Below, in pieces: positions 23,661 through 55,607 of a DNA stretch of 57,739 nucleotides. The position numbers and the translations under genes were made by a program. This DNA comes from Sphingomonas sp. (GTDB lineage Bacteria > Pseudomonadota > Alphaproteobacteria > Sphingomonadales > Sphingomonadaceae). Every line of letters starts with the position of its first letter. Position 1 is the stretch's first letter. The stretch lies in contig PNLG01000208.1 of assembly GCA_013822915.1 (NCBI GenBank), positions 1-57,739 on the forward strand. The letters are read 5' to 3'. The notes beneath the pieces are model-generated. The model did not search any database. It was given only the letters and a program-made list of their open reading frames with translations, and was not told the DNA's origin.

Positions 23661-23747
23661 GCCCAGATGGCGGAATTGGTAGACGCACCAGCTTCAGGTG
23701 CTGGCGCTCGCAAGGGCGTGGAGGTTCGAGTCCTCTTCTGGGCACCA
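23661..23747 (+). tRNA. tRNA-Leu (CAG)
   Basis: Acceptor stem GCCCAGA/TCTGGGC; anticodon arm CCAGC-TTCAGGT-GCTGG; long variable arm; GTTCGAG T-loop; encoded CCA. Confidence 0.98.
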
Positions 23748-27036: not shown

Positions 27037-27090
27037 GGTCTTTCTCCCGCTCGAGCGGCGGGATGCCGACGAGTGGGAGTTCAGTTATCG

Positions 27091-29046
27091 TCAATGGATC
27101 GTCTGATTTAGAGGACCCCCCTTGTTCGCCGCGATGAATCTTGCAAGCGATAGGCGCTCGTTCGCGGTCAGTGGTGCCGGCGGCGGCGTCGCAGAGTGAT
27201 TGCCGCCACGCCCACGGTTCGGCGAACGCACGCAATCGTGTTTACGGGCATGAGGGTCGCGCATCATATCGGTCGCAGAGACCTGGCCACGCGCTGCGGC
27301 TCTGAGGCAAAATTGGAGCTCATCCGCTGGGATCGAGCTGTCAAAGCAGCCGGGGAACGCAATCTCATGGTCAAGGCCAACATTGTCCCACGCCAGCCGC
27401 AGCATGTCGGTTTCACGATAGGGATCGAACCAGATCGCAGGCATGAAACAGATCGTATGTCCAATTGTCGTCGGATCGTTGGTGACGAACTGGCTGGGTT
27501 CGTGCCGCGCTTTAGCAACCATGCCCGCGAGAAAGTCGTCGCCAAACCACTTGGAACGGGCGGCAACCGAGCCGGCTGGCGCGCCATTGCCATGGAGCGT
27601 CTCCCATCGGCGAGGGTTGGCGACGACGTCGCCCAAGCTGACAGGAAAAGGCGGCGTTGCCGTAGCGGGATGCTTCTTTTTCCGAGCGCACGTCGTCGCA
27701 TCGACGGCTTCACGCAGAATCGACCACCCGGTTGCTGGGCAGATGCGGGCGATTGGGAGGAGCGCGAGACGACCGATCGCGCTGTCGGTCAAGATATCAA
27801 ACAACGGCGGCGACTGATTTTGCTTGCGGCCCTTGGACCATCCTAGCCAATCACGGACTTCGAGCAGAAACCGGATCGCCAACAAGCGAACATCGCGTCC
27901 TGCGAAGAACTGCGCTGGTTCTTCGCCCTGCACATCGCGCAATCGCGAGTCGAGCACGAAAGGTGGTGCGGTGCGCGCATTGAACCCTGCCAGGTCCAGC
28001 GCCGGTTCGCTGACACAACCTTCGATCTCGTCGGTCATGTTCGCGTCCCCACCAGGACCGAAAGACCAGTGGGGATGTCGGGGATTATGGCCCATCGCCA
28101 TCCCGTCGCCGAACAACAGCGCGAGCGCGCCGCGGTGGCACCACATGCTGCCGACGTAGCGACCCGTGGGACTGTCAGCTGCGACCGCGCCAGCCAGCAT
28201 CGACGTCGAGCCAAGCGCCGCCATCAACTTCGTCATCATGACGCGGCTTGGGCCGCCAATCGCAAACATCAGCTCAAAAAATCGCTCCGCCTCCCAGAAC
28301 AGCGCGACGACTGCCCGGAACTTGTCGCGGGGATCCTTGACGGCCCGCAGGAACTGCATGTCCGGCATCCGACGGTTTTCCCGCAGCAGCCTTTGCACAC
28401 GCCCTGCGTCGCGGCGCCAGACCGCGTCGAACATGGCCGGCCATCCGCCGAGCAGCGTTTCGAGGAGGCTGATCCAGTCGATCAGCGTGACGTCCAAGAC
28501 CTGGCGTAGCAATTCATCGGCGCAGTGGTCCGCGTCATACGCCTGTCCGGTATAGTCTGGGTCAGTGACCAGCCTTCCCTTGTGATCGCGGCATACTCGC
28601 TCGAGATAGACTTTGGGGTCACGGGACACCCGACCCAGATTGGCGTCAACGCCGAACCAATAGGGCCAGCGGTAGATCACTGCTTGGCAGAGGTCGGCAC
28701 TGTTAGCCGGTGACTGGAGGGCGGCCTCGCGTTGGGCCGTGACAGTGTCCTCATATTTGCGGGCCATGTTCATCATGCGATCCATCACGGGATGGAATTC
28801 ACCGACGATGTCGCGCAGGCCGGGCAGCCTGCCGTGGCGCCATCCGGCTGCGCGCGTTTCGCGGCCCAGTATGCGGATGTCCGCCATTGATGGAGGCAAC
28901 CAGTCCTTCGCCTTCTCAAGCACCGAAGTCGGCACGGCGTCGGGATTAGCCGCCATCTCTTCGGCGATAGCTGCGGCAACCCCAGCCATCATGGGGCTCG
29001 TTGGCTGACGCGGGTGCAGACTGCTGCTGCTATGTATTGCGGCCAT
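27091..29046 (-). CDS. Hypothetical protein (~650 aa)
   Basis: Long ORF in the leftward operon, GGAGAAG RBS before ATG 29046; no family recognised. Confidence 0.7.
   Translation of the reverse strand: MAAIHSSSSLHPRQPTSPMMAGVAAAIAEEMAANPDAVPTSVLEKAKDWLPPSMADIRILGRETRAAGWRHGRLPGLRDIVGEFHPVMDRMMNMARKYEDTVTAQREAALQSPANSADLCQAVIYRWPYWFGVDANLGRVSRDPKVYLERVCRDHKGRLVTDPDYTGQAYDADHCADELLRQVLDVTLIDWISLLETLLGGWPAMFDAVWRRDAGRVQRLLRENRRMPDMQFLRAVKDPRDKFRAVVALFWEAERFFELMFAIGGPSRVMMTKLMAALGSTSMLAGAVAADSPTGRYVGSMWCHRGALALLFGDGMAMGHNPRHPHWSFGPGGDANMTDEIEGCVSEPALDLAGFNARTAPPFVLDSRLRDVQGEEPAQFFAGRDVRLLAIRFLLEVRDWLGWSKGRKQNQSPPLFDILTDSAIGRLALLPIARICPATGWSILREAVDATTCARKKKHPATATPPFPVSLGDVVANPRRWETLHGNGAPAGSVAARSKWFGDDFLAGMVAKARHEPSQFVTNDPTTIGHTICFMPAIWFDPYRETDMLRLAWDNVGLDHEIAFPGCFDSSIPADELQFCLRAAARGQVSATDMMRDPHARKHDCVRSPNRGRGGNHSATPPPAPLTANERLSLARFIAANKGGPLNQTIH
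27108..27123. repeat. 16-bp direct repeat TTAGAGGACCCCCCTT, copy 1
   Basis: Exact copy at 30516-30531. Confidence 0.85.
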
Positions 29047-29821
29047 CGGACTTCTCCAAATCATCAAGGAACGCGACATCTTCTTCGCGGACGACGCCGA
29101 TCACATGCGCCGACCATCTGTTCATGGTGCGTTCTAGGACGGTCACCCGGTTAACCCCAACGTGTGCCAGCTGAAGGGCAGCCACATTGTCCCGGATCGG
29201 GACATCTGCTGCCAGCTTGGGCAGTAGCAGCGCAAGTTCGCGGGCCACCGCAACATATTCGCGCTCGATCTGACGTAGGTCGCGCACCTGGTGATAATGC
29301 CTGTCACGATCGGTCCATTCGAGCGCCGGCGCGCTGCTGTGCAACGGCGTTCGGCATGTCGCCGGGTTGGCGAGCAGGACCGCGTGCGCTTCGCCGAAAG
29401 TGGCGAGAATTGGCGTCGGCTTGCCGTCGTGGATCGCCTGCTGCTTGAGCACGTCAATCTGCTCAGAGCTTGGTGACGCGCACATTGCGGTATTGTCGTC
29501 GCGGCGCTGCGCATGCTGGTCGTAGCAGCGGTGCAACTGGCCGATGAAGCTCGCCTGCAAGTCGATCTTCGTGATCACCGCGATCGCGCGAGCCGCCTCG
29601 TGGCGAACAAATCGGGCCAGATCTTCCTGGAGGACGAAGAAGCGCGCCCGCAGCCTATCCATCCCTTCATGGATGGCAAGGAAGGCATCGTCGTCGGAGT
29701 GCGTGATGCTGTCGCGTAGCGCGAGCAGTTCGGCCCTGACCTGCTGGCGCTCCTGCTCGATGGCTTGGTGGTCAGTTAGTTCGTGAACGACGCCCGCGCG
29801 GTCGGTCCATTGGAACTTCAT
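29030..29821 (-). CDS. Hypothetical protein with internal duplication
   Basis: Two WTDR-x4-H-x3-D-x3-IE repeats; ATGA overlap with the upstream gene. Confidence 0.75.
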   Translation of the reverse strand: MKFQWTDRAGVVHELTDHQAIEQERQQVRAELLALRDSITHSDDDAFLAIHEGMDRLRARFFVLQEDLARFVRHEAARAIAVITKIDLQASFIGQLHRCYDQHAQRRDDNTAMCASPSSEQIDVLKQQAIHDGKPTPILATFGEAHAVLLANPATCRTPLHSSAPALEWTDRDRHYHQVRDLRQIEREYVAVARELALLLPKLAADVPIRDNVAALQLAHVGVNRVTVLERTMNRWSAHVIGVVREEDVAFLDDLEKSDGRNT

Positions 29822-30468
29822 GCACCGACCCCCCGGTAACGAAGATTCGCGCGCGAGGCATCAAGCCAATCGTGCGCGCTGCCGCGCATCAAATGACCCG
29901 GAAGGTCGATCTCGAGCAGCGCGCAGGTCGAACGGATGAGCTCCTGCTGGTCCATGGTCATGCGCAACTGGCGCCACCTGCCGGTCAAGCGCATGTCTTC
30001 GTCGGCAGCGAGCCAGTCGTCATGCTCGGCGAAATAGCGGTCGGCACGTCGGCGCCAGGCTTGAAACTCGCCCTTGGCCGCCAGCTCTGCAGCGGCCATG
30101 TCGATTGCGCGCACCAGCACCGCACCGGCATCGCCGTCGGGCAATTGACGTGCTGCGTGTGTGAGGCGCTGAACCAGTTCGGCGACGCTTTCACCAAGCA
30201 GGCCATCGAGCCGCCAACTGTCGGCAGCGACAAGGCCACGGTTGCGCAGGACAAAGCCGAGCGCGATGGCACCGGCAACATCCTTGGGGTCGCGCTTGAC
30301 CAGCGTCGCCCCCGCCGTAAGCAGCGCCCGCCGACGAAGGGCGTTCGCCGTGTGCCGCGCGATCAGCGATGCGTACGACGCATCGGGCGCTATTGCCGCG
30401 GCATCGCCCGCCATATCGATCGCACCGCCTGCGGTGCTCGTCGTTCCTTCTTTATCATCCATGGCCAT
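29818..30468 (-). CDS. Hypothetical protein, possible relaxosome accessory (TraD/MobC position)
   Basis: AAAGGAG RBS; divergent from the relaxase across the candidate oriT; function inferred mainly from position. Confidence 0.6.
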   Translation of the reverse strand: MAMDDKEGTTSTAGGAIDMAGDAAAIAPDASYASLIARHTANALRRRALLTAGATLVKRDPKDVAGAIALGFVLRNRGLVAADSWRLDGLLGESVAELVQRLTHAARQLPDGDAGAVLVRAIDMAAAELAAKGEFQAWRRRADRYFAEHDDWLAADEDMRLTGRWRQLRMTMDQQELIRSTCALLEIDLPGHLMRGSAHDWLDASRANLRYRGVGA

Positions 30469-30704
30469 GATTCGGCTCCTTTCGAGAGCCTTCGATCAGA
30501 TTCGACCAAAAAGAATTAGAGGACCCCCCTTCTTTGAGGGTGGCGTGGAAAAGCGATAGTATTGAGGTCAGAGTCGGCAGGTGGTAGTATTCAGAAGATT
30601 GGGGGGTGTTGGCGAAATAAATCTTTCAGCTTCTCTGAAAGAATCGCGTCGTCTTCCACGACTTGATTTTACACCCCCCTTTCTTCAATTGCGAGATCGG
30701 ACCA
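30469..30704. other. Candidate oriT / divergent promoter region with nested inverted repeats
   Basis: Outer inverted repeat 30594-30609/30671-30686 (14/16) and inner TCTTTCAG/CTGAAAGA hairpin; immediately upstream of the relaxase. Confidence 0.55.
30516..30531. repeat. 16-bp direct repeat TTAGAGGACCCCCCTT, copy 2
   Basis: Exact copy at 27108-27123. Confidence 0.85.
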
Positions 30705-33248
30705 GTGCAGTTTCAAATTTGCAACTCTGGCGAAGTCTGGGTTTCGGTTACTCCTGCTGAGGCTCACCGTATTGCGCGAAAGCGAACCGGTGCGCTTGCC
30801 GCAATTGTTCGGCAGCAGCGTAAGGATTTAAAGCAGGAGTCGCGCGAATATCGTCGCGCCGAGCGGGAGCTGCAAAACGATATACGGGAGGCAGACCGGT
30901 GCAACCGCGCGTTCTGGAAACGCATCCGCATCAAGCCGGAACTTCGTTCGATGACCGCCATCGAACGCAAGCCAGAGACGCACAAGCCAACGAAGACCGG
31001 CTGGCTCGCCGGTGGGTCGCTGATGCCTCGCTATTCCGGACAGATATTCGACCGAATGGGTCGCGCGGGCATCTTCTTTCGTGTGAGGTATTACGGACGC
31101 TCGACCAAGGTCGGCGTCGGCCGCCGATCGACACTCTATGTTTGGCAGGGCGCGCATCAGATGGACGACGGGCGCATTCTGTTTGCGTCCAATGTCGGCG
31201 AGACAGCCGAGGAAGCGATCGCCGCGCTTGAAGCCGTCGAACTGTTCAACCGCGAGGCCCAAACAGGCGCCAAGCTGCTGTTCCATGCCATTGCTACCGT
31301 GCCATACCAACTCGTCGAGATGGACGGCGGTATCGATCGCATGTTCGAAATCGGGCAGCGCTTCGCTGAGGAACAGTTTGGCAGCCGCGACCTGCCATTC
31401 GCGCTTGCGCTGCATCCGCCATCGGAAGAAGGCGACCAGCGCAACTGGCATATTCACCTGATTTTCTCGAGCCGCCCACTTGTCCTCACTGGCGACCATG
31501 AGTGGGACATCGGCCGCATGATGCGCCGCGAGATCGACAATCCGGAAGCGTTCGAAGAGATGCGACACCTCTATGCACGCATTCAGACCGAGGTCGTGCA
31601 GGAAGCTGGTCTCAATATCACCTACACCGCGCTTTCCAACGTCGAGCGCGGACTGCCTAATGCGCCCCAGAAGCATCTGGGGTCGGCCCGGACTGCGCGG
31701 GTGCGACGCGGCGAGGAGGACCAGGTCAACGAAAGCAACTGGGAGAAGATGCTGGCGGGCGAAGCCGCGCTGCTTGATGAACAGCTTCGCCATGGCCAGG
31801 AGCGGGCCGCCGCCGAACAGGCGCTGCTCGACAGCGTGCAGGAACGCGTGGCGGGGTTGATCGCGAGCGTGACGAATCGGCCCAGCCTCGCGATCCCGGC
31901 TCTTGCCGATCATGCCGAGCCGATCGCCAATCTGTCGCTCAGCGCTGCCACCCTTGGTGTCGATAAACCTGCCGATGCGCCGGCGCTGGTGGTGCCGGTT
32001 GCAAATTTGCAACCAGGCGACCGTGGGATCGCCGACGTCGCATCGCTGGCTTACCTGCCACCGTCCGAACACGACCGCGCACCCGGCACTTTGATCTCCG
32101 GTTCTGCCGTGCGCAGCATGGCGCGGCCGATCGACGTGCCGCGCGCGGTGGCGGGAATTGTCGACCGCGTGGTTGCCCTAGCAAGCGTGCCGAGCCTGCC
32201 GACCGCATTTGATACGAATTATCGAATCGCGGCTGTGCCGGTGACGTCCGCCGAGGGCGCACGCGCGGTCTTGCCGTCGCTTCCGCTCGGCAACATCAGC
32301 GCAATCGTGGGCCAGGCAGGGGCGGCGATCCGCAAGCCGCCGTCGATTGTCGAGATGGGAGCCGCCACCGATGGGATTGGCCTTTCGCTCGGCATTGGCG
32401 ACGGCCCGGCGCCGCGTCCACTCGATCTGCCGAAAGAGGCGGCGGCGCTCGCCAGCAGTATCATCGATCGCGACCTCGACGACCTTGACCGGCTATTCGC
32501 TGCCCGCCGTGACAGGATCGCCATCGACCGCGCCAAGGCCAAGCGGGCGGAAATGGAACAGGCGCAACAGCGTGAACGTGAGGATACCGAACGGCAGGAG
32601 CGCGAAACCGAACAGGCGCTGTTGCGCCAATCCGAGCAAGCCGCGCTCGATGCGATGCTGGCCACGATCGAGGCAGAGCGCATCCTGATCACGTTCGAAG
32701 ACGATGCGTGCGTTGTCGACGATGCAGTCCGCAAACGGTTCGGAGTTACGCCTGCACGTATTGCCGCAGCGATGACGCAGGAACGATTGGACGCCATTGC
32801 CGATCGCCAGCGTGCCGAGATCGAGCCGATGACGGTCTACGCTGCGGCAAACGGCGATCATATCGTGCACGGGGATCGCGGGTGGACGCTGTCGCTGGAC
32901 GCCCCGGATCATCTTCGTCGCGTTGCCGATGCCTGGGTGCACGAACCGATTCTACAACGTGCGTTCTCAGAAGCCATTGCGATTCATCGCGAGGCGCATG
33001 CGAAGGCACAGCTGACGCGTCGGACGGAGCAGTCCGGCACGATTGCTCTCCGACCAAGCCGACGAGAATTGCTTATCTTGGCGGCGCACCAGCGTGAGGC
33101 GATGACGGAGCGTTGGCGGCAGAAGCGGCGGTTCGACCAAGAACAGGACACGCGTGGCCACGATGCCGAAATCGGCGCGCTGCGCCCCTCGTCGCCAGTC
33201 CCAAGCCAGCCGCTACCAGCGCCTCTTGACCCGGGTCAGGATCGCTGA
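30705..33248 (+). CDS. MobA/MobL (MOBQ-like) relaxase with long C-terminal extension
   Basis: ALALHPP...DQRNWHIHLIFSSRP HUH motif and S...RGL...PQKHLG; start uncertain (30663-30951). Confidence 0.85.
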   Translation: MQFQICNSGEVWVSVTPAEAHRIARKRTGALAAIVRQQRKDLKQESREYRRAERELQNDIREADRCNRAFWKRIRIKPELRSMTAIERKPETHKPTKTGWLAGGSLMPRYSGQIFDRMGRAGIFFRVRYYGRSTKVGVGRRSTLYVWQGAHQMDDGRILFASNVGETAEEAIAALEAVELFNREAQTGAKLLFHAIATVPYQLVEMDGGIDRMFEIGQRFAEEQFGSRDLPFALALHPPSEEGDQRNWHIHLIFSSRPLVLTGDHEWDIGRMMRREIDNPEAFEEMRHLYARIQTEVVQEAGLNITYTALSNVERGLPNAPQKHLGSARTARVRRGEEDQVNESNWEKMLAGEAALLDEQLRHGQERAAAEQALLDSVQERVAGLIASVTNRPSLAIPALADHAEPIANLSLSAATLGVDKPADAPALVVPVANLQPGDRGIADVASLAYLPPSEHDRAPGTLISGSAVRSMARPIDVPRAVAGIVDRVVALASVPSLPTAFDTNYRIAAVPVTSAEGARAVLPSLPLGNISAIVGQAGAAIRKPPSIVEMGAATDGIGLSLGIGDGPAPRPLDLPKEAAALASSIIDRDLDDLDRLFAARRDRIAIDRAKAKRAEMEQAQQREREDTERQERETEQALLRQSEQAALDAMLATIEAERILITFEDDACVVDDAVRKRFGVTPARIAAAMTQERLDAIADRQRAEIEPMTVYAAANGDHIVHGDRGWTLSLDAPDHLRRVADAWVHEPILQRAFSEAIAIHREAHAKAQLTRRTEQSGTIALRPSRRELLILAAHQREAMTERWRQKRRFDQEQDTRGHDAEIGALRPSSPVPSQPLPAPLDPGQDR

Positions 33249-33541
33249 GGCCGAGCCTTCGGTAGCATCTTCGCGACTTCCTGCTCGCGCGCGTCGCAGA
33301 ACTCAACCGGCTGTTCGCCAGACCCCCAGGTCTTTTCATGCATCGCCGAGCAGAAGCAGAAGATCCGATCGGAACCCTTCCAATACCAGATCGCGGCCGG
33401 GCAATCGCGGCACGCTACTTCGTCGCCCGGCCCCGGCTCGCCGATGCTGTCCCCGCCCACATGCTCAAGGGTTGGACTGGAATGCGGGCTCTTCAGACGG
33501 CCGTTTTCCATAAAATCATCATCATCGGTGAATTCCTGCAT
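33236..33541 (-). CDS. traH: IncP TraH-like small Cys-rich relaxosome protein
   Basis: Acidic N-terminus, SPTL, CxxCP-xx-IW, CxCxxM-xxx-TW and CD pattern, matching RP4 TraH as recalled. Confidence 0.65.
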   Translation of the reverse strand: MQEFTDDDDFMENGRLKSPHSSPTLEHVGGDSIGEPGPGDEVACRDCPAAIWYWKGSDRIFCFCSAMHEKTWGSGEQPVEFCDAREQEVAKMLPKARPQRS

Positions 33542-33748
33542 CGATACATGATGCACCATGCAAGCTTAACATCAGGTTGGCATCCATGGGCAGATCCCAC
33601 CCGCTTGTAAGTAGCGTGGAAAAGGCCCGCTGGCTGCGGTGCTGATGATCAGAGTGATTGAGCGGAAAAGGGGCTTGGCGCACCGGACCGTCCAGGCGGC
33701 CTGATTGCATTTGCGGGCACCAGCCCGCTCTCATGATAAGGTGATCCT

Positions 33749-34564
33749 ATGCGCACATCCATGCGGCCACCGAGCCGCGCGTCCGCCGCAGGCTCGGTCC
33801 TGGCCTATGACATTGAAACCATCGCCCCGCAGACCGAGGATGGATCATTCCCGCCCTGGCCGCTTCACAAGCCGATCGCGATCGGCTTTGCAGCCGCACA
33901 ATGTCGCAATGGCGTCTGGGCCTTCGATATCGAGGCGCTGATCGCCACTGGCGATACTGAAGAAGCTGATCTGATCCGCGCGGCGGACCGGAAAATGGCG
34001 GCAGCGGATATCGTGACGGGCTATAACTCGGCCCAGTTCGATGCCCTGGTTCTACGGCTTGCGGCTCAGCGATGCAGGTTGTTCGACTTGAAGGCGCTCG
34101 CCGACCACGCTGCGGCCCATCGCTATGGCGGCAATCACCATGATCTGGCAGATCTATATGCCAGCTATGGCCGCAAGGTTTCGCTCGCGGCCATCGCCGA
34201 TCAGATCGGCATTCCCGTCAAAACGGACGTGTCGGGCGGAGACGTGGCCGCACTGTGGGCAGCGGGCGAGCACGAACGCATCCGCCGATATGTCATGGAA
34301 GATGCCGTGGCGACGCTATGCTTGTATCTGGCCTGGCAGGCCGCGCGATCCGCCGACGAAGCCGCGATCACCCGTCCCATGGCTGCACTCGCGCAGCACA
34401 TTGAGGCGACGCCTGGCCTTCAGCACTTGCGGACCTTTGTCGACTGCTCGCTGATGCGATGGTGCCGCCCACGCGCGCTGAAGGCTGAGATCGCCGCAGC
34501 GCTGAAGCGCGTCACGGCCCGGCTACGCCAGGAAGAGGATGAGCGCGCCTTCATGGCCCCCTGA
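33749..34564 (+). CDS. PolB-related DEDDy 3'-5' exonuclease (intact motifs)
   Basis: ExoI YDIET, ExoII GYNSAQFD, HDLAD and ExoIII YVMED. Confidence 0.85.
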   Translation: MRTSMRPPSRASAAGSVLAYDIETIAPQTEDGSFPPWPLHKPIAIGFAAAQCRNGVWAFDIEALIATGDTEEADLIRAADRKMAAADIVTGYNSAQFDALVLRLAAQRCRLFDLKALADHAAAHRYGGNHHDLADLYASYGRKVSLAAIADQIGIPVKTDVSGGDVAALWAAGEHERIRRYVMEDAVATLCLYLAWQAARSADEAAITRPMAALAQHIEATPGLQHLRTFVDCSLMRWCRPRALKAEIAAALKRVTARLRQEEDERAFMAP

Positions 34565-34643
34565 TCCTCGGGTCCATCATTAACGCCCAGTCGGCCCGGT
34601 CATCCTCGTGATGGCCGGGCCGCATTCATTTGGAGGAACTTCC

Positions 34644-35258
34644 ATGACCACCGATACCATCGTTCTCGCCACATCCTGGATCCAACAGTCCGCTTGGGGC
34701 GAATGCCCGGCACGCACCTTGCTGGTCGGCGCCGCGACCCTGACCTGTCGCTATCGCTTCGGCAGCGTCGGATTCGATCTGGGGGCGCACAGCACCACCG
34801 TCACCGACAATCCGGTCGAGACAATTTCATGGCTGGCCGACGCCTTCCACATTCCGCCCGCGCGACTGCTGCTGTGGCGTGCTGAGAACATTGTGGTGCC
34901 GTCGCTGATCGCCGCCGCCGAGACGGCGCGCGACGCCCTTGCCGCCGCGAAAATGTTGCGCGAGCTGGACCTCGCCTTCACCGGTGAGGTGATCGATGTC
35001 GCCGAGACCTATGGAGGCTCCAGCGCCAAATCCTTCGATGCGGTAGCGCACTGGGCGGACGTCCCATTCGTGCCAATGACGCGGGCCGATCTCGAAGAAG
35101 CCCACCGCACCGGCTGTCATGGTGCAATCCGCGAGCACCTTGCCGCCCGCGTGAAGGCAACCTGGCAATTGTGGCTCGCCAGTCGAAAGGACGCCGAATC
35201 TCTGGTCGGCGCGACCGAGGCCTGGCTGGCAACATCGGATTCGCAGGTGACGCTGTGA
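34644..35258 (+). CDS. Catalytically degenerate paralog of the PolB-type exonuclease
   Basis: IDVAETYG, SFDAVAHWADVP and IREHLAARVKATWQLWL align with the preceding exonuclease, but the DEDD acids are missing; GGAGG RBS. Confidence 0.6.
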   Translation: MTTDTIVLATSWIQQSAWGECPARTLLVGAATLTCRYRFGSVGFDLGAHSTTVTDNPVETISWLADAFHIPPARLLLWRAENIVVPSLIAAAETARDALAAAKMLRELDLAFTGEVIDVAETYGGSSAKSFDAVAHWADVPFVPMTRADLEEAHRTGCHGAIREHLAARVKATWQLWLASRKDAESLVGATEAWLATSDSQVTL

Positions 35259-36190
35259 TCGTCGTCGATGGCAAAGCCTATGTCCGCCCGTGCCGGTCAA
35301 TTGCAAAGGATGGGTTCGAGCAGAATGACTATGTTGCATCGATTTCTGAACTCTACGAACCTTTGACTACCCTTATGCCGCTCACTGGCAGCTCGATGCT
35401 GGCAAAACGTCGCCCCAGCGAAGAAACACGGCTTGCAGAAGCGCTCCGCGCCCAAGCGCCGTGGATGTCGTCGGCGATCGATCTGATTGCCGACCAGACC
35501 GCGTTTAGCGCCTGGTCAGGGCAGCCATGGCTGGCGCTGCGACCGATGCTGTTGGTCGGTCCGCCTGGTGGGGGAAAGACGCACTTTGCCCGGCTCGTTG
35601 GCGAACTGTCAGGCGCGGGCAATGCCGTTCTGTCGTTCGCCGGGATCAATTCGAACGCCGAGCTGGCAGGCAATCCACGCGGCTTCCGCAACCCGCTTCC
35701 CTGCTTCCCGGCGTGCGTGATGCAGCGGACGATGACCGCCAACCCCGTCGTCGTCATCGACGAAGTCGAGAAGACCAGCATCAGCAATATCGGCGATCCC
35801 GTCGCCACGCTGTTGACCTTGCTCGAACGCTCCAGCGCGGCCCGGTATTTTGACGGCTGCCTAGCCGCCGAAATCGACCTGTCGCACGTCAACTGGATGT
35901 TGACCGCGAACAGTGCCGCACGGCTGCCGACCCCGTTGCTTTCGCGGGTGCAGGTGGTCGAGGTGCGGGGTCCAGGTCCGGAGCATGCCGAACTGGTCTT
36001 GGCAATGCTCTGGCGCGACGTCGCCCGCGACGCAGGGCTGCCACCAGCCGCGCTGCCCCGGCTCGAGGCGGCAGCGGAGACCATGCTGCTGCGCCTTTTC
36101 CGGAACACCCGCTCGGTTCGCCGCCTGCGTCGCGCGATCGAGGCGTTGGTTGCCGTGTCGGCACGACACGCCCCCCGCGCGCTCAACTGA
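35255..36190 (+). CDS. Lon-like AAA+ ATPase without a protease domain
   Basis: LLVGPPGGGKT, NPVVVIDEVEK, IDLSHVNWMLTAN and PLLSR; GTGA overlap with the upstream gene. Confidence 0.85.
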   Translation: MIVVDGKAYVRPCRSIAKDGFEQNDYVASISELYEPLTTLMPLTGSSMLAKRRPSEETRLAEALRAQAPWMSSAIDLIADQTAFSAWSGQPWLALRPMLLVGPPGGGKTHFARLVGELSGAGNAVLSFAGINSNAELAGNPRGFRNPLPCFPACVMQRTMTANPVVVIDEVEKTSISNIGDPVATLLTLLERSSAARYFDGCLAAEIDLSHVNWMLTANSAARLPTPLLSRVQVVEVRGPGPEHAELVLAMLWRDVARDAGLPPAALPRLEAAAETMLLRLFRNTRSVRRLRRAIEALVAVSARHAPRALN

Positions 36191-36282
36191 AGGCAAGTCC
36201 CTTCGTGAAGTCACGGTTGGGCACCGTGGAAGAATGAAAAAATGGTTCCGGCCCGCAGACCGACAACAAAAGGAAATGATAG

Positions 36283-36822
36283 ATGAAAATGATGCCTCAC
36301 CATCAGAACACCATGCTCGCGGTTCGGCGGGAAATGGGCTGGCCAGGGTTCAAGCCGGCGAATGACTGCATCGGCTTCTGTTCCGGTCGTCCCATGGATT
36401 TCGAGGTCGGCATGGAAATCGCGCGTGTCGCGCAGATGATGGGCAAGGATGTCATCTATTCGGGCTGGGCCAGCACAGAGGCGACCGAGCCAACCGGCTT
36501 CACGGTCGCATATCGGGAAATGCTCAACATCGACATCGTCGACAACCTCGTTCCTTACGCCGCAAACGACGATGCGCCGCTCCTGCTTGTTAGCACCCTC
36601 GCGGACGAGTTTTTTGCCATTGATGGGCGCGGCAGCCTCGTCCGCATGCCCGGCAAGACGAAGGACATCCACAAGGGGCGCAAACTTGCGGTGAAGCGGA
36701 TCAAGGCGCGGGCCGCCGCGATGGATAACTCGCTGCTGGCGAACAACCGGTTCGTGCCGACCGGGCAGGACTGGATCGAGCCAGACCGCGCCCAAATCGA
36801 AACCGTCGTTCGCTTCGCCTGA
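36283..36822 (+). CDS. Hypothetical protein
   Basis: AAGGA RBS, gene-like codon usage, co-oriented within the cluster. Confidence 0.75.
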   Translation: MKMMPHHQNTMLAVRREMGWPGFKPANDCIGFCSGRPMDFEVGMEIARVAQMMGKDVIYSGWASTEATEPTGFTVAYREMLNIDIVDNLVPYAANDDAPLLLVSTLADEFFAIDGRGSLVRMPGKTKDIHKGRKLAVKRIKARAAAMDNSLLANNRFVPTGQDWIEPDRAQIETVVRFA

Positions 36823-36875
36823 CCCACCACGGCGGGCGCCATCCGGTGCCCGCCGATTCCTATTCGGAGACCATC

Positions 36876-37757
36876 ATGAACATCGACAACATCACCACGC
36901 CGCTTGCCCCGCGGTGCTGGATCGTGCTCGATATCGAATCCGCCGTGCTCGATGACACCGCCCACAAGCGCTATCAGCAAATGGAACGCTGGGTGCCGTC
37001 CGACGACCAACCGATACGCCGCAACTATTTGCGCTCTGAAGACCCGCTGAGCTGCCCGCGATGGATTTTTCAGACCGTGACCAGCGCGTCGGCCATGGTG
37101 CTTATCGAGCATATCGACGGTGGTGCTGACGTGCTCGCCTTCGAAACCTTCAGCGCGCCTGATTTGGATGAAAGAGGCGTGGTGGCAGGCCTGCTCAAGT
37201 TGCTTGGGGATGCACCACCGAACGCCGAACTCGCCTCATACGCGGGGTCCGCACACGACATTCCGATGCTCGTGTTGGCCGCTTGCCGCCTTGGACTGAC
37301 CATACCGCCGCGTTGGCGGTGGATGGCGTATAACTGCGGGGATCCCAAACGGCATTTCGATTTTGCGCGGCACGTGACCGGCGGCCTGCGGATGAACCTC
37401 GTCCACATGGCCGAGATCGCTGCCGCCCTAGATATCCCGGCCAAGATCAGCGTGCCAGCGGCGGCGGTGGCAAAGTTGATCAAGGCTGGTCGTTGGGGCG
37501 ATGTCGTGGAAGCCGTCGAGGGCGACGTCATCACATTGGCGCTGCTTCTCGCCCGTTGGCGGAAGCTGAGCGATATAGATGCCGACCCGGTGATTGTGGA
37601 GGATCGTATCCTGCGCCGAATCATCGAACTACGGCCCGGCCGCGGATATGTTGCGGCCCTGGAAATGCACCGCCATCGACGCTTCTCTGCGCAATATGCC
37701 ACCGCAGCCAACGACGCCAAAACGCTGGCACCATGGCTTGATCAGGACGCAGCTTGA
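36876..37757 (+). CDS. Another PolB-related 3'-5' exonuclease paralog (partly divergent active site)
   Basis: LDIES; SYAGSAHDIP; ExoIII AVEGDV lacks the Tyr; GGAGA RBS. Confidence 0.75.
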   Translation: MNIDNITTPLAPRCWIVLDIESAVLDDTAHKRYQQMERWVPSDDQPIRRNYLRSEDPLSCPRWIFQTVTSASAMVLIEHIDGGADVLAFETFSAPDLDERGVVAGLLKLLGDAPPNAELASYAGSAHDIPMLVLAACRLGLTIPPRWRWMAYNCGDPKRHFDFARHVTGGLRMNLVHMAEIAAALDIPAKISVPAAAVAKLIKAGRWGDVVEAVEGDVITLALLLARWRKLSDIDADPVIVEDRILRRIIELRPGRGYVAALEMHRHRRFSAQYATAANDAKTLAPWLDQDAA

Positions 37758-37947
37758 TCTTCAGCGTTGGTCACTTTGCGGCTGGCCTCGCGACTTTGCG
37801 TCGCTGGCCCCTCATTCGCGCAACAATCTGGCTGCGCGACCCACGCATAGACTGGCGCCTTACTTGTTGAAAACAGATGTCCTGTGAGTCTCGACATTGC
37901 CGCGCGATCACAATCGGCTATGCGTTTCTCTGGGGAGATTGACGCAC

Positions 37948-40900
37948 GTGCTGCAGGGTGGGTTGTTCACGAGAGATTGGCTGACGGAGGGCATTCATGA
38001 GAGTGCCCCATGGCGCGAACTCACCGAGCAATCCGTTGATCGTGCGCGCGAGCAGATTGGTGAACTGCTCACTTCACTCACCAAGCGCAAGGCCCCCGTT
38101 GAAGCCGAGACCGAGGAGAAGCTGGTCTATCCGGTGCTGCGCCTGCTGGGATGGGACCACATCTCGGTGCAGCAGCGAATGGATGCGCGCGGCCGCAACG
38201 ACGTGCCGGATGCCTTGCTGTTCCCGGATGGAGAAGCCGACGAGGCCGCCGCCGGGCTCGATCCGTGGCAGCGTTTCCGCCACGGGGCCGCGCTAGTTGA
38301 GGCCAAGCGTTGGAACCGACCGCTGGACCGCGCCGCGCAAGGCGATCAGGGTGTGCCGGCCGCACAACTGATGCATTACCTCAGCCGTGCCGACGTCATC
38401 ACGCAGGGCAAAATGCGCTGGGGCATCCTGACCAACGGCCGACATTGGCGGCTCTATTGGCAGGGTGCGCTTTCGGTTGCGGACGACTATCTCGAGATCG
38501 ATCTCGGCAAGGTGTTCGACCTCCCCGGTTGCACACCTGATCTGCTCGATACCGACGTCACCGCCGACCACGCACTGCGCCTGTTTCTGCTGCTGTTCGG
38601 TCGGGCGGCGTTCCTGCCTGCGGAACAGGGGCGCTCGTTCCATGACCAGGCGTTGGTCGATGCGCGGCAGTGGGAAGAGCGGGTCGCGCGCGATCTGTCC
38701 GACGTCGTCTTCGACCGCGTCTTCCCGTTGCTTGTGCGCGCGTTACCAAAACACGATCGCGCCCGCCCGGAAAGCGCTGGCGATGCCTATCTCGAAGAGG
38801 TGCGATCGGGCGCGCTCGTTTTGCTCTACCGGTTGCTGTTCATCCTCTACGCAGAGGATCGTAACCTGCTACCGGACGAGCGGGGCCCCTATGCCCGCTA
38901 CAGCCTGACCCGCATGCGCCTGGAAATCGCGGACGCGCGCGAGCAGGGCATCGCGCCCGCTGCACGCAGCACGGAATATTGGGGTCGGCTTGAGACAATC
39001 TTCGGCGCAATTGCCGAGGGTGACGACGAGCTTGGCATACCACCTTACAACGGTGGCCTATTCGATCCGGCGAACGCACCGCTGCTCGGTCGAGTGCGGC
39101 TGCCGGATGCCGTGACGAGCGAGGTGATTTTCCTGTTATCGCACAGGCCCGCCGCGCCGCCCGCCCATCCACGCCCGCGCTACATCAACTACCGCGACTT
39201 GTCGGTGCAGCAGCTCGGCTCGATCTACGAATCGATCCTCGAATATGCTGTCGAGGCGGACGGCGCGGGCGGTGTCCGGCCACGGGCGGACAACAGCGCC
39301 CGGCATCGTTCGGGTTCCTATTATACCCCGGAAGATCTCGTCGGGCTGATCATCGAGCGTGCGGTTGGCCCGCTGGTTGATGAAGTGACCAGCGCCTTCG
39401 CCAACGCCGTTGCCGCTGGCACCACCGGCGATGCGCTCGCGGCGCTCGACCCCGCGACGCGCATGCTCGACCTGAAGATCGTTGATCCGGCGATGGGTTC
39501 CGGCCACTTTCTCGTCAGCCTGGTCGACTGGCTGTCTGACAAGGTCTTCAAGGCAACCGAAGACGCGGCCATTGCCGCTGGCGGCGGCTATGTGTCGCCG
39601 TTGGTTGAACGCATCGCCGCACTGCGCGCCGACATCCTCGCGCGGGCAAGCGAGCATGGCTGGCCGATCGTCGCCGAACAGCTCGACGATCCGCACATCG
39701 TCCGCCGCATGGTGCTGAAGCGTTGTATCTACGGCGTCGACCTCAATCCCATGGCTGTCGAGCTCGCCAAGGTCGCGCTCTGGTTGCACAGCTTCACTGT
39801 CGGGGCACCGCTGTCGTTCCTTGATCACCATCTACGCTGCGGCAACAGCGTGCTCGGCGCTTGGGTGCGGCCGACCAGCCTGTGGCTCGCCAATCGCGGG
39901 TCGCTGATGGTCAACCGGCATCTCGCTATGATCGACAATGTTGCCGCAGCGATGGCGCAGATCGAAACGATCCCTGACAATGACATTGCCGAGGTCGAAC
40001 AGTCCAAGGCGCTGTTCGGCACGGTGGCCGAAGCCAGCGCGCCGATCGACGCCCTGCTGAGCATGGTAGAGGCGGACACGTTGATGGGCGTGTTCGACGA
40101 CGCCCCGGCGCGCATCCGCGAATCGGCCGAGCAGATTGCAACCGTCGGGCGCGCCACTGTTGCGCAGATGGCCGAGGGCGATGACAAAGAGCGCGCCGTG
40201 AAGGCCAAGGCGCTGGCCAAGGTCGAGAAGGCGCTGGCCAAGGCAGCAGAGGCCGAACGCCGTTATGCGCGAGCCGAAGCCTTCAAGATGGTCCTGGAGG
40301 GGAGCTTCGGTGACCCTGCGATGATCGCAACCGGTGCTATCGAGATTGCCGACCCGGCTCTGCGCGACGGGGCTATCGAGCCTTCGGCGCAAGCCAGCCT
40401 GCTGCCCTCGGCCCGTCCTGACGATCGTCGTCGATTGATGGCGGATGCTTTGGTGCGCGAGGCGCGCGCGTTGGCGGACGAGCACCGGTTCCTGAATTGG
40501 GAGATCGCCTTTCCCGGCGTCTGGCGCGACCTCGCGTCGCAGGGGCGCAGCGGCGGGTTCGATGCCGTGATCGGCAACCCGCCTTATGTGCGGCAGGAGA
40601 TGATCAGCTCGATCAAGCCCTCGCTGGAACGCGCCTATGGCAGCTTCGCCGGCACGGCTGACCTCTATGTGTATTTCTATGAGCAGGGGCTGAAGCTGCT
40701 GCGGCCGGGCGGACGCATGGCCTATGTTGTCACCAACAAGTGGTTGAAGGCGGGCTATGCCGAAGGGCTGCGGCGGCTGTTCGCCGAGGACGCCTGGGTC
40801 GAGTTCATGGCCGATTTCGGCCACGCCAAGCGCTTCTTCCCTGACGCCGACGTGTTCCCGTGCATCATCGCCGTGCGCAAGCCCGACGCCGGACCCGTGC

Positions 40901-42186
40901 CTGAAATGTTCGACTTGGCCGTCATCCCGCGCGACGATGTGCCGCGTAGCGGGCTGGCCGAAGCCGTGCAGGCGGCGACCTATCTGTCGCGCCGCGATAC
41001 GCTCACCGCCGATCCCTGGTCGCTCGAGCCGCCCGACGTTGCCGCGCTGCTGGCGAAGATCAGGGCGAACGGCGTGCCGCTGGTCGATTATGCGGGAGTG
41101 AAGCCGCTCTATGGCATCAAGACCGGCTTCAACGAAGCCTTCCTGATCGACACGGCAACCAAGGAACGCTTGATCGCCGAGGACGGCCGCGCGGCCGAGG
41201 TGATCAAGCCCTATTTGCGCGGGCAGGACATCGATCGTTGGCTGCCGGACTGGGCAGGCCTGTGGATGATCGTGATGAAGTCGAGCAGCGATTTTGCCTG
41301 GCCATGGGCGGGCGTGGCGACCGAACAGGCTGCTGAAGCGATCTTCGCCGATGCCTTTCCAAGCCTGCATCGACACTTCAAACTGTTCGAAAGTTTGCCG
41401 GACCCCAAGACCGGCAAGCGCAAGGGGTTACGCCATCGCGAGGACCACGGCCGCTTCTGGTGGGAGCTGCGACCGTGTGCTTATTATCACGCGTTTGCTG
41501 AGCCGCGCATTTTCTACAACGACATCACGTGGTCGTCCTCGTTCGGCATCGACGTTGCCGAGAGGCTCACCAACAATACCGGATATTTCATACCCTCCGG
41601 CGATCCCGTTCTCGCTGCGGTCCTCAATGCGCCTTTGGGCTGGTGGTATTCTTGGCGTCGCGCACAGCACGGCAAGGATGAAGCGCTGCGGTATTTCAGC
41701 TCGTTCGTCGAATCCTATCCGATTCCAGCCGCGATCGATAACGAGCGGTCTGCCGTTAGCGATACGGTCTCGCGCTTGGCGGCTGTGACGCGCACTATCC
41801 GCACGGCTGATCGTGCGCTCGCCGATTGGCTTCGACTGGAAATAGGCTTGGCAAAGCTGCCTGGATTGCTCGGTGAAGCCAGCCGCCTCGACAGCGACGG
41901 CTTCGTCGCGGCAGTGCGCGCCGCGTTGCCCAAGCGTCTGCCATTAACCGCATCGCGGCAGGCGCAATTGCGTGAGAACTTCGCCGAAACCGCAGAACCT
42001 GCCCGCACCGCCCGGGCCGCCGCTCTTGGCGACGAACGCACACTCTCCGATATCGTCAACCGCGCCTATGGCCTGACACCGGAAGACATCGCCCTCATGT
42101 GGCGAACCGCCCCCCCACGCATGCCGCTGGCGTCACCAATGCCGACCGAGCCGAGCTCAACGGATGCGGCTGCGGACCTGATCTAG
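37948..42186 (+). CDS. Type IIG (Eco57I-like) fused restriction endonuclease / N6-adenine methyltransferase
   Basis: PD...EAK nuclease, LTNGRHWRLY, PYNGGLF, GSYYTP, DPAMGSGHF, GNPPYV and a TaqI-C-like target recognition domain. Confidence 0.93.
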   Translation: MLQGGLFTRDWLTEGIHESAPWRELTEQSVDRAREQIGELLTSLTKRKAPVEAETEEKLVYPVLRLLGWDHISVQQRMDARGRNDVPDALLFPDGEADEAAAGLDPWQRFRHGAALVEAKRWNRPLDRAAQGDQGVPAAQLMHYLSRADVITQGKMRWGILTNGRHWRLYWQGALSVADDYLEIDLGKVFDLPGCTPDLLDTDVTADHALRLFLLLFGRAAFLPAEQGRSFHDQALVDARQWEERVARDLSDVVFDRVFPLLVRALPKHDRARPESAGDAYLEEVRSGALVLLYRLLFILYAEDRNLLPDERGPYARYSLTRMRLEIADAREQGIAPAARSTEYWGRLETIFGAIAEGDDELGIPPYNGGLFDPANAPLLGRVRLPDAVTSEVIFLLSHRPAAPPAHPRPRYINYRDLSVQQLGSIYESILEYAVEADGAGGVRPRADNSARHRSGSYYTPEDLVGLIIERAVGPLVDEVTSAFANAVAAGTTGDALAALDPATRMLDLKIVDPAMGSGHFLVSLVDWLSDKVFKATEDAAIAAGGGYVSPLVERIAALRADILARASEHGWPIVAEQLDDPHIVRRMVLKRCIYGVDLNPMAVELAKVALWLHSFTVGAPLSFLDHHLRCGNSVLGAWVRPTSLWLANRGSLMVNRHLAMIDNVAAAMAQIETIPDNDIAEVEQSKALFGTVAEASAPIDALLSMVEADTLMGVFDDAPARIRESAEQIATVGRATVAQMAEGDDKERAVKAKALAKVEKALAKAAEAERRYARAEAFKMVLEGSFGDPAMIATGAIEIADPALRDGAIEPSAQASLLPSARPDDRRRLMADALVREARALADEHRFLNWEIAFPGVWRDLASQGRSGGFDAVIGNPPYVRQEMISSIKPSLERAYGSFAGTADLYVYFYEQGLKLLRPGGRMAYVVTNKWLKAGYAEGLRRLFAEDAWVEFMADFGHAKRFFPDADVFPCIIAVRKPDAGPVPEMFDLAVIPRDDVPRSGLAEAVQAATYLSRRDTLTADPWSLEPPDVAALLAKIRANGVPLVDYAGVKPLYGIKTGFNEAFLIDTATKERLIAEDGRAAEVIKPYLRGQDIDRWLPDWAGLWMIVMKSSSDFAWPWAGVATEQAAEAIFADAFPSLHRHFKLFESLPDPKTGKRKGLRHREDHGRFWWELRPCAYYHAFAEPRIFYNDITWSSSFGIDVAERLTNNTGYFIPSGDPVLAAVLNAPLGWWYSWRRAQHGKDEALRYFSSFVESYPIPAAIDNERSAVSDTVSRLAAVTRTIRTADRALADWLRLEIGLAKLPGLLGEASRLDSDGFVAAVRAALPKRLPLTASRQAQLRENFAETAEPARTARAAALGDERTLSDIVNRAYGLTPEDIALMWRTAPPRMPLASPMPTEPSSTDAAADLI

Positions 42187-43146
42187 AAAGTTTTCCCAAA
42201 AGTATGTCGCCGCGCCATGGGCATCGAGCGGCCCGTCGGCATTGCGGCGTGACATCGTGTTGCTTGTGCCGAAGGCGAGACCCTGCTGCGTGTCCTCCAA
42301 GGGAAGCCAGTCGTTCATCGAATTCCGCGAGCTGGTCGCAGAATCATAGCTCAGGCAGAGTGCGTTCCGCCACATGTCGCTCCCGTGCCATATGCTGACT
42401 TGGCCGACACGCTTGCCGTCAAGATAGACGCTAGCCGCGAACGAGCGGCTGTCGATCCGTTCGAAGTCGGTATTGATGCGCGGGTCAGATGCGTTCAGCT
42501 CGGCAAGCTTTTGCTCGAACAACGCTGCAGTGGTGGCGAAACCACTGCGCAGAAAACGGTCACGATCCAGATCGGTCGGCTTCGCGACGATGCCAAGCGT
42601 ATTAGTCGAACGGACCGAGCGAGATATCGGGTCGGCCGCGGGAGCCGTCGGGACACGACCACGGGCCGCGAAGGCCGGTGAGCTGTTTCCGCCATCGGCT
42701 TTTAGCATTTCGCGTATTGCACCGGCGGCATTGTCGAATGCGGTGTCGGCGTCAGACCAGTTGATGACTGCCTTGCCATCCTTGGGCAGCGCTAAGAATT
42801 CCGACAGCGTCTCATTGTTGCCGATGGGAACGCCCTTCCATTGACAGGGGCGCAAAATGATCGGGATTACGCGAGCCCTGCCGTCCCGCTGGCGCGCGAA
42901 CGCCCGCAGCATCTCCTGCTCATAACAGTATTCCGAGGCGATGAAATCCGCCGACACCAGCAGGATCACGACGTTAGACGCCGCCAGGGCGGTCTGAACA
43001 GCCGGGTCGAGATGCTCGCCTGGCCGGAGCATTCCATCGTGCCACAAATCGATCAGGCCTTCGCGCCGCAGCGGGGCAAGATGCCGCACAAATTGCTCCT
43101 TCAGCGCGCTGTCGGCGTGGGTGTAGGAGATGAAACCGGTTGTCAT
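42157..43146 (-). CDS. TIR domain protein with uncharacterised C-terminal domain
   Basis: FISYTHAD, LVSADFIASEYC...E (catalytic Glu position) and IPIILRPC. Confidence 0.9.
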   Translation of the reverse strand: MTTGFISYTHADSALKEQFVRHLAPLRREGLIDLWHDGMLRPGEHLDPAVQTALAASNVVILLVSADFIASEYCYEQEMLRAFARQRDGRARVIPIILRPCQWKGVPIGNNETLSEFLALPKDGKAVINWSDADTAFDNAAGAIREMLKADGGNSSPAFAARGRVPTAPAADPISRSVRSTNTLGIVAKPTDLDRDRFLRSGFATTAALFEQKLAELNASDPRINTDFERIDSRSFAASVYLDGKRVGQVSIWHGSDMWRNALCLSYDSATSSRNSMNDWLPLEDTQQGLAFGTSNTMSRRNADGPLDAHGAATYFWENFLDQVRSRIR

Positions 43147-44300: not shown

Positions 44301-44302
44301 GA

Positions 44303-44914
44303 TTAAGCTCCGTCAGGGCCGGACCCGGCCTCATCGTCGCGATAAATCTCGTCGTCCCCAAGGTCGCCGACAGACGGCGGAGGCAGATCGCGTCCTTCAG
44401 GCCGCTCATCGCCCAGCAACACTATCAGCGGCTCCGCTTCAGCGAGCGGCAATGGCCAAACCGTTTCCGGCTGATCGTTGCGCAGGGCAACGAAGCTCGC
44501 GCCCAAAAGAGCGCCGTCGATATCAGTTGTCACGCCGATGCGGAACAACATCCCTGCCGTCGGAACTCCGGGCTCCAGGTCGAGCAGCAATTGCTCGAAC
44601 GGGGTAGCGACCACGATTTTGGCCGTCGGCTCTGCCGGATCCCCACGCCAGAACCGCATCGGAACCCCGCCGACGCTGAACTGGAAGTGCTTGCCAGCGT
44701 CAATGACGCCTAACCACTCAAAGCCAGGCGTCCCCGCAGCCTGATTGATCCGGAAGCAGCCATAGTTGTATGCACATACACCCAAGGTCCAGTTGTCGTC
44801 ACCGATCGTGGGATCAAACCGGTCGACTGCGCTGCCACGCCCCACCGCAAGCAGCTGAGCAATTTTTACGAGTCGCTCTTCGGTGAGCTCCTGATGGTAA
44901 TCCCAAGGCCGCAT
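44303..44914 (-). CDS. Hypothetical protein, first gene of the XRE-ImmA/TIR operon
   Basis: GGGAGA RBS; stop 2 bp before the XRE-ImmA start; acidic tail. Confidence 0.8.
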   Translation of the reverse strand: MRPWDYHQELTEERLVKIAQLLAVGRGSAVDRFDPTIGDDNWTLGVCAYNYGCFRINQAAGTPGFEWLGVIDAGKHFQFSVGGVPMRFWRGDPAEPTAKIVVATPFEQLLLDLEPGVPTAGMLFRIGVTTDIDGALLGASFVALRNDQPETVWPLPLAEAEPLIVLLGDERPEGRDLPPPSVGDLGDDEIYRDDEAGSGPDGA

Positions 44915-44955
44915 CAAAGTGTCTCCCGGCCCGTCGGATCGGGCGTATGGACATC

Positions 44956-55588: not shown

Positions 55589-55607
55589 GTCCTCTGCGGG
55601 GCACCAC
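55589..55607 (+). repeat. attR, GTCCTCTGCGGGGCACCAC
   Basis: 17/19 match to the tRNA 3' end, located right after the last cargo gene. Confidence 0.82.

Follow-up and report, generated by a model that had tools for sequence, protein, structure and literature searches.

A putative nuclease module joining an exonuclease, a catalytically dead paralogue and an exchangeable last gene on mobilisable islands of Sphingomonas

A stretch of 57,739 nucleotides from Sphingomonas sp. (contig PNLG01000208.1 of assembly GCA_013822915.1, hereafter the window) carries five genes, Exo-A, Exo-B, AAA, ORF4 and Exo-C, that an original prediction made from the sequence letters had grouped into one candidate system of three related exonucleases, a Lon-like ATPase and a protein without known relatives. 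The five open reading frames (ORFs) were confirmed, all on the forward strand, between positions 33749 and 37757. We describe them here as a cassette representing a new kind of module of putative function, built from parts that belong to known folds and new in the way these parts are assembled. Judged from gene content, its fixed core consists of Exo-A and of Exo-B, a catalytically dead paralogue, while the ATPase is optional and the last gene slot is exchangeable. Our favoured interpretation, to which we attach a probability of roughly 0.4, is that the cassette processes the single-stranded or 3'-ended DNA of its own island while the latter is excised, copied by rolling circle or mobilised.

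Misassembly does not explain the cluster, since contigs of the public runs X1, X8 and X11, which may themselves be the source of this DNA, cover all five genes without a single differing letter. Exo-B and ORF4 have no match in Pfam, NCBIfam, PHROGs or PADLOC, and none of the five genes matched any model of PADLOC-DB 2.0.0 (2023 library) at E 0.001, as the original prediction had expected. The genes do co-occur elsewhere, as it had also supposed, and their layout was tabulated over 49 deduplicated loci. Left out of this table were near-identical or duplicate loci (L006, L013, L018, L020, L050, L059, L068-L071, L090, L100, L107, L120, L122), truncated or weak ones (L056, L057, L112, L113, L124-L126), stand-alone or weak exonucleases (L114-L116), 12 distant loci holding ORF4 only (L127-L138) and short or duplicate contigs without gene calls (L014, L019, L058, L062, L065-L067, L072, L073). 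The five-gene order recurs in 9 of the 49 loci, plus one in which Exo-A lies off the contig. Six loci read Exo-A, Exo-B, ORF4 and a short MobA gene; seven, plus one with a split b1, hold two dead paralogues, b1 and b2, followed by Exo-C and ORF4, with no Exo-A; five consist of a DEDDh exonuclease, ORF4 and Exo-C without Exo-A or Exo-B; and b1-b2 occurs with a short MobA or alone in four. A second, diverged copy of Exo-A, Exo-B and AAA, with the same type of leader, lies in the same genome (contig C2, 1-2133, L002), where the contig end cuts it; it shares 42, 29 and 41% identity with the respective genes of the window.

Exo-A matches the Pfam family PF10108 with an E value of 4e-22 and 79.4 bits (Pfam cut-off 24) and carries D21/E23 in ExoI, N93/D98 in ExoII and Y181/D185 in ExoIII. 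Among 33 distinct homologues the ExoI and ExoII motifs are each kept in 33 and the ExoIII YxxxD in 31, and these motifs assign Exo-A to the DEDDy 3'-5' exonucleases within a DnaQ-like domain. All 36 Exo-A genes of the larger locus set have an Exo-B neighbour. The tail that follows the ExoIII Asp measures 85-93 amino acids (aa) in 34 Exo-B-linked copies, compared with 67 aa in two stand-alone PF10108 genes (L114, L115), which differ from Exo-A further in having no adjoining dead paralogue. Plasmids of PLSDB returned only four distant Exo-A matches (26-28%). A gene of about 200 aa without assignment lies directly 5' of Exo-A in several loci without the long relaxase, L016 (8418-9053), L005, L092 and L097.

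The partner of this enzyme, Exo-B, is predicted to adopt a DnaQ/RNase H-like fold, an expectation on which the original prediction had staked itself. Its AlphaFold2 (AF2) model is confident (pLDDT 93) and superposes on exonuclease domains of family-B polymerases (VIA Z 15.8, rmsd 4.8, 170 aligned residues with 5mdn_B), Foldseek agrees, and HHalign relates Exo-A to Exo-B with a probability of 99.3. Both in the HHalign alignment and across 58 family members the catalytic acids are absent at ExoI, ExoII and ExoIII, and the sole invariant column in these 58 is a non-catalytic Asp, D118. Lacking the four acids that define DEDDy exonucleases, Exo-B is classed from its sequence as a catalytically dead paralogue; its family comprises 72 representatives at 50% identity. 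A quick paralogue tree with long branches, from which no order of events is claimed, separates the acid-bearing Exo-A and Exo-C from the dead Exo-B, b1 and b2. The b2 paralogues (L053:9023-9679 and others) contain a conserved His and a CxC...C stretch, and may bind zinc.

Exo-A and Exo-B are predicted to form a heterodimer through the C-terminal helix of Exo-A. The model of the complex reached an ipSAE of 0.89, the best of three controls 0.01; this level is attained by 116 of 157 solved complexes and by 2 of 215 mismatched pairs, counts that are approximate for the alignment used here. Model runs share at least 96% of their contacts, with a partner pLDDT of at least 87. The predicted interface places residues 212-262 of Exo-A, mostly beyond the Pfam domain, on helices of Exo-B (80-127), away from the Exo-A active site. 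Pairwise distances of the two proteins correlate at 0.83 over 26 loci. The active/pseudo-nuclease complex imagined in the original prediction thus gains support from the model and its controls, and we know of no solved complex that resembles it.

The third gene overlaps the reading frame of Exo-B by GTGA (35255-35258), which bears out the translational coupling noticed earlier, and its product corresponds to the ATPase part of Lon only, namely positions 356-559 of the 795 of TIGR00763 (E 6e-30, 104 bits, family cut-off 608). It matches Lon of the Protein Data Bank (PDB) with E 6e-22 and aligns to Lon residues ~351-550. Walker A and B, sensor I and the Arg finger are intact, and an aromatic pore-loop residue is present; under strict patterns, Walker A was counted in 21, Walker B in 18 and the Arg finger in 21 of 22 family members. 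On this basis the protein is assigned a LonA-type module. It differs from LonA in having neither the Lon N domain, its N-terminal ~95 aa being its own, nor a C-terminal protease domain, the 311-aa ORF stopping after the AAA module, and Pfam recognised no protease gene among the cassette genes. The 120 homologues listed span 189-342 aa in a search confined to lengths of 171-545. AAA is present in 20 of the 49 loci, every time alongside Exo-B, and missing from 29; Exo-B and AAA distances correlate at 0.74 (17 loci). Comparable AAA genes without a protease part were found in other alphaproteobacteria, on 16 plasmid records, and in the one such locus examined the neighbours include no exonuclease or ORF4. 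One distant AAA yielded only Walker-A-sized matches in PADLOC (IetA, TRIP13).

Exo-C is a variant of the same Pfam family as Exo-A (E 2.6e-9, 37.5 bits, cut-off 24). By its motifs it retains the four acids (D19/E21/D128/D217) and lacks both the ExoII Asn, replaced by A123, and the ExoIII Tyr, replaced by A213. This state is fixed: the acids are found in 34/34, 34/34 and 33/34 family members, the ExoII Asn motif or ExoIII Tyr in 0/34. The motif assignments made for all three paralogues in the original prediction therefore hold. In a family-A polymerase, a Tyr-to-Ala change left 4% residual activity (PMC9324360); by this analogy normal exonuclease activity of Exo-C is doubtful, and the protein probably does not work as an ordinary exonuclease. 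It may still bind metal, as the invariance of its acids suggests. Exo-C distances are uncorrelated with those of Exo-A (-0.09) or Exo-B (0.06; 10 loci each).

The last slot holds Exo-C in 29 of the 49 loci, a short MobA in 18, both in none and neither in two, one of which is cut by a contig end; these loci include kin and are not independent, so that a Fisher value for this exclusivity overstates the case. The short MobA, a minimal HUH nuclease, is a protein of 200-300 aa that Pfam assigns to MobA/MobL; its Tyr and its three His are intact in each of the 13 sequences aligned (13 of 13). It coexists with a long relaxase in six loci and is thus not simply a replacement of the latter. Across a tree built from 26 Exo-B rows the occupant switches six times, at least three of these switches being forced by starred branches, and the same exchange is found in the b1-b2 clade. 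In several loci an ECF-sigma-like protein of ~205 aa (L008:13288-13908; identified by eye, with no Pfam match above cut-off) is encoded 3' of Exo-C, behind a long near-perfect hairpin leader of its own.

ORF4 is conserved and resists classification. It has no match in the ESM Atlas, a PDB profile search gave E 0.12 at best, Foldseek found no structure at E 0.001, and the best VIA alignment (Z 4.8) was with a CE-clan protease. Several restriction-endonuclease-like chains align with Z values of only 2.6-3.9, and a degenerate PD-(D/E)XK fold is, from these model comparisons, a lead only. Distances of ORF4 are uncorrelated with those of Exo-C (0.02, 16 loci) or AAA (0.07, 14 loci). The distant ORF4-family genes of L127-L138 stand without an exonuclease cassette, sometimes in tandem, and one adjoins a RepA-like gene (L127).

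All five genes are under purifying selection, as judged from their substitution patterns. Median dN/dS ratios (Nei-Gojobori, pairs with dS of 0.05-1.5) are 0.19 for Exo-A (139/171 pairs), 0.26 for Exo-B (170/171), 0.23 for AAA (152/153), 0.37 for ORF4 (156/171, maximum 1.0) and 0.25 for Exo-C (74/105). The 'graded decay' of active sites proposed in the original prediction gives way to motif states that are fixed within each family under strong selection. Support is likewise lacking for one unified system of five genes with the ATPase as its remodeller, given that AAA is missing from so many loci, that Exo-C does not co-evolve with Exo-A or Exo-B and that ORF4 and Exo-C occur without the core.

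With its Exo-B family detected in 30 of 230 genomes of the genus, the cassette is a common one among its hosts; the ORF4 family was detected in 43 of 230. Outside the genus, scans that scored only seven candidates per genome turned up the Exo-B family in 8 of 399 further genomes from the order, each belonging to the family of the window, and in 0 of 400 genomes of the class. A pattern scan of IMG/VR viral contigs returned no Exo-B relative. Two contigs of metagenome-assembled genomes named Pseudorhodoplanes and Rhizobiaceae carry the family and may be mis-binned; the named relatives are mostly Sphingomonas.

The cassette resides on an island (Table 1) that we class from its gene content as an integrative mobilisable element, with an integrase, att repeats, a relaxase and no recognised type IV secretion system (T4SS) of its own. 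In 32 of the 49 loci the cassette contains, or has close by, a gene of the MobA-type HUH kind, and in 18 a long relaxase is encoded on the same strand no more than 1 kb upstream. The cassette is retained while the integrases (serine or tyrosine), tRNA sites and cargo (restriction-modification (R-M), arsenic, copper, transporters) vary around it.

Table 1. Features of the island and its cassette in the window
Feature	Position	Strand	Remarks
tRNA-Leu(CAG)	23661-23747	+	Island integration site; ARAGORN, Rfam
Large serine recombinase	23694-25340	-	Putative island integrase; Pfam Resolvase, Recombinase, Zn ribbon
Left att-like repeat	23730-23748	+	19-bp direct repeat, tRNA 3' end; two matches in window vs 0.01 expected by chance
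Candidate oriT	30600-30690		G-rich/GCGMAAKAAAT motif, then inverted repeat, inside a larger hairpin; putative
MobA/MobL (MobQ-type) relaxase	30663-33248	+	PF03389, E 9e-7; start codon uncertain
107-aa ORF	33236-33559	-	Between relaxase and cassette; conserved in several elements
Leader before Exo-A	33646-33733	+	Conserved; GATC-closed irregular hairpin with GGAAAA bulge, then second hairpin
Exo-A	33749-34564	+	271 aa; PF10108 DEDDy 3'-5' exonuclease by motifs, intact site; C-terminal helix predicted to bind Exo-B
Exo-B	34644-35258	+	204 aa from ATG; predicted PolB-exo fold, putatively dead paralogue, purifying selection
AAA	35255-36190	+	311 aa from GTG; LonA-type AAA+ module, protease-less, optional in family
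Leader before ORF4	36214-36263	+	Hairpin, A-rich loop
ORF4	36283-36822	+	179 aa; conserved, no family match, fold search without clear match
Exo-C	36876-37757	+	293 aa from ATG, GTG start at 36846 possible; PF10108 variant
Type IIG R-M gene	37897-42186	+	First defence cargo gene, outside cassette
Right att-like repeat	55589-55607	+	17/19, 2 mismatches; bounds ~31.9-kb island

The ORF of the serine recombinase ends within the antisense strand of the tRNA-Leu gene (23694-23750), so that the integration target supplies its stop codon. Between this integrase and the relaxase, four minus-strand ORFs (25642-30468; 464, 662, 263 and 216 aa) have no Pfam, NCBIfam, PHROGs or PADLOC match; L011 and L051 share their order, L009, L013 and L053 do so in part, and they are candidates for island regulation or replication genes. 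The relaxase falls below the cut-offs of the TraA_Ti and MobQ models. An oriT-like motif occurs within 400 nt of the relaxase start in the window, where the copy is degenerate, and in 14 related loci; on the minus strand of relatives it resembles the core of the MOBQ oriT consensus given in PMC3832669. In L012 (14151-16016), L017, L049 and L015, a protein of 620-680 aa with tyrosine-recombinase-like motifs and no Pfam match is encoded beside tRNA-Pro or tRNA-Gln, and is probably a divergent integrase of cassette-bearing islands. The window contains the 11-mer GCGTGGAAAAG at two places only, 30543 and 33614, upstream of the relaxase and of Exo-A; it resembles a DnaA box on the opposite strand or a promoter element.

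Beyond the cassette, Pfam and PADLOC recognised IIG R-M, TIR, RmrA/RmrT, WYL, REase-ARP, DUF2779, PD-(D/E)XK, McrBC and CoiA-like genes. On the minus strand (42157-44917), the TIR protein (PADLOC ThsB1, E 5e-78) is encoded directly 3' of an RmrT/RmrA-like pair, with no ThsA recognised, and the TIR gene and RmrA are adjacent in L008 too. The segment 45063-55401 resembles a defence operon, with WYL, REase-ARP, DUF2779, PD-(D/E)XK, McrB, McrC and a CoiA-N/Xre-C fusion. In a comparison with the first 18 related loci, a homologue of the type IIG gene adjoins the cassette only in L008; the R-M neighbour is variable cargo.

How the cassette might act on the DNA of its island can be sketched from these parts. 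Exo-A would trim DNA 3' ends, and its C-terminal helix would dock on Exo-B, which would serve as a scaffold or DNA-binding partner; AAA, coupled to Exo-B and present only in Exo-A/Exo-B loci, would be an optional ATP-driven remodeller; and a second nuclease would come from the last slot, in the form of Exo-C or of a minimal HUH endonuclease for single-stranded DNA. That an HUH domain is one of the slot occupants points to single-stranded or 3'-ended DNA as the substrate. The original prediction had considered defence and transfer both compatible with the position of the cassette between relaxase and R-M gene. The relaxase link together with the exchange of Exo-C and HUH leans towards transfer, without settling the role, and the R-M gene is variable cargo. 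Several observations weigh against processing of the island's own DNA. Pfam recognised no T4SS or coupling protein on the island; 17 of the 49 loci have no relaxase within the fetched flanks, several of which are short; and about 19 of 49, by manual reading, have defence-type genes within a few genes of the cassette. Exchangeable nuclease slots are typical of defence systems. Four loci (L027, L098, L099, L109) hold only the dead b1-b2 and no exonuclease with DEDD acids, which implies that exonuclease activity is not universal. Residues of the predicted interface are no more conserved than their neighbours (Exo-A 0.67 vs 0.67, Exo-B 0.62 vs 0.61), and since loci were found with Exo-B or ORF4 queries, those with Exo-A only are under-sampled.

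The strongest competing explanation, which we hold to be a close rival though at distinctly less than even odds, is a system directed against phages or rival elements, in which Exo-A and Exo-B would sense or degrade foreign DNA ends, with AAA as their optional activator and with an exchangeable effector in the form of Exo-C or the HUH domain. The combination of nucleases, an ATPase and an exchangeable slot suits such a system, as do its patchy distribution in the genus and its neighbours in the 19 loci, namely R-M systems of types I, II, IIG and III, MmeI, SNF2 helicases, WYL/DUF2779 and AbiEii; the island of the window itself holds a IIG R-M, a ThsB-like TIR gene, RmrA/RmrT, McrBC and others. 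Any mobile island would, however, be expected to carry defence cargo, and many loci carry only metal-resistance or transport cargo. PADLOC recognised none of the five genes, one slot occupant is a relaxase-type domain, and the position next to a relaxase recurs in unrelated islands.

The DNA upstream of the genes may hint at a different type of role. The 300 nt that precede the gene contain GGAAAA in 38 of 40 Exo-A, 17 of 18 b1, 51 of 65 ORF4 and 9 of 13 ECF-sigma-like genes, and in 0 of 35 Exo-B, 0 of 28 AAA and 1 of 38 Exo-C genes, the chance expectation being ~6% per 250 nt. This distribution suggests two transcription units, Exo-A/Exo-B/AAA and ORF4/Exo-C. In Exo-A leaders the motif occupies a bulge or loop of an irregular hairpin with GATC closing arms; 21 of 24 have a hairpin z below -2, values inflated by the choice of segments by their closing arm, and the sense strand is the more stable in 22 of 24, two more leaders having no anchor. 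A covariance model found leaders before Exo-A in six held-out loci (E <0.03), two unrelated places scoring as well as the weakest of these. Such features would fit a regulatory cassette in which the dead paralogues or ORF4 bind the hairpin leaders and the exonuclease turns over island RNAs, thereby controlling mobilisation genes, and the loci holding dead paralogues only are compatible with it. We consider this improbable. Covariation among 11 close leaders does not exceed that of shuffles, RNAalifold on a sequence alignment gave only four pairs, Rfam has no match, and the Exo-A leader of the window is weak (z -0.2); moreover, the closest folds are exonuclease domains of DNA polymerases. No sigma-70 hexamer pair was found at 30400-38000 with an E. 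coli-type consensus.

Still less probable is an accessory of host or island DNA repair or proofreading, comparable to epsilon-type exonucleases on plasmids. A DEDDh (PF00929) exonuclease with relatives on 351 plasmid records does replace Exo-A and Exo-B in 5 of the 49 loci, L121 and L122 have an SRAP gene beside it, and an AlkB-type gene lies near L111; against this, no polymerase gene was recognised among the scanned neighbours, and LexA-like boxes precede only 3 of 34 Exo-A genes. Finally, the notion that the paralogues are decaying duplicates without joint function, which the lost catalytic residues and a few frameshifted copies (AAA of L013, Exo-C of L014, b1 of L104) could suggest, is largely refuted by dN/dS medians far below 1 in all five genes, motif states identical across families and the predicted Exo-A/Exo-B complex.

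Several known systems share parts with the cassette. Exo-A and Exo-C pass the Pfam cut-off of PF10108/COG3298, predicted exonucleases related to those of PolB, the family being listed as 'predicted' in PMC3985635; the Exo-B family and the paired arrangement occur in none of the searched libraries. MOBQ mobilisation modules of integrative mobilisable elements share the integrase, the tRNA att site, the MobA/MobL relaxase and the oriT-like motif, and the literature searched described none to which exonuclease/pseudo-exonuclease accessories are added or whose exchangeable slot holds a further minimal HUH gene. BREX with BrxL, Lamassu and Iet have in common with the cassette a nuclease and AAA+ content, an exchangeable effector-like slot and a defence-island neighbourhood; they differ in that the genes of the window have no PADLOC match. 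Leading-region anti-defence islands with Frpo single-stranded DNA promoters likewise carry hairpin leaders on a mobilisable element (PMC11541004). That paper places the relaxase in the lagging region, whereas the cassette lies directly 3' of a relaxase, without a sigma-70 pair and with hairpins favouring the sense strand. Frpo-type promoters as described there were rejected as a candidate identity of the leaders, with no promoter-like site found by the E. coli-type consensus and the cassette beside the relaxase. No description of the cassette was found in the literature searched, which consisted mostly of papers available without subscription.

Taken as a whole, the cassette may tentatively be read, at somewhat short of even odds, as a new nuclease machine of mobile elements, composed of a tail-clamped exonuclease and its dead paralogue, an optional Lon-derived motor, a plug-in slot for a DEDD or relaxase domain and hairpin leaders. 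The non-canonical DEDD enzyme and the minimal relaxase domain would then share one job on single-stranded DNA, and the machine would either finish the transfer intermediates of its own island or destroy those of phages and rival elements. The uncharacterised PF10108 family gains a testable partner and context, and the cassette adds, from bacteria, a pair of nuclease and pseudonuclease whose predicted interface is specific. From the exchange in the last slot it would seem that an HUH relaxase domain and a protein of DEDD fold can take each other's place, on islands that bear defence and metal-resistance cargo. The biology would be new in either case, be it an accessory step of mobilisation or a system of defence.

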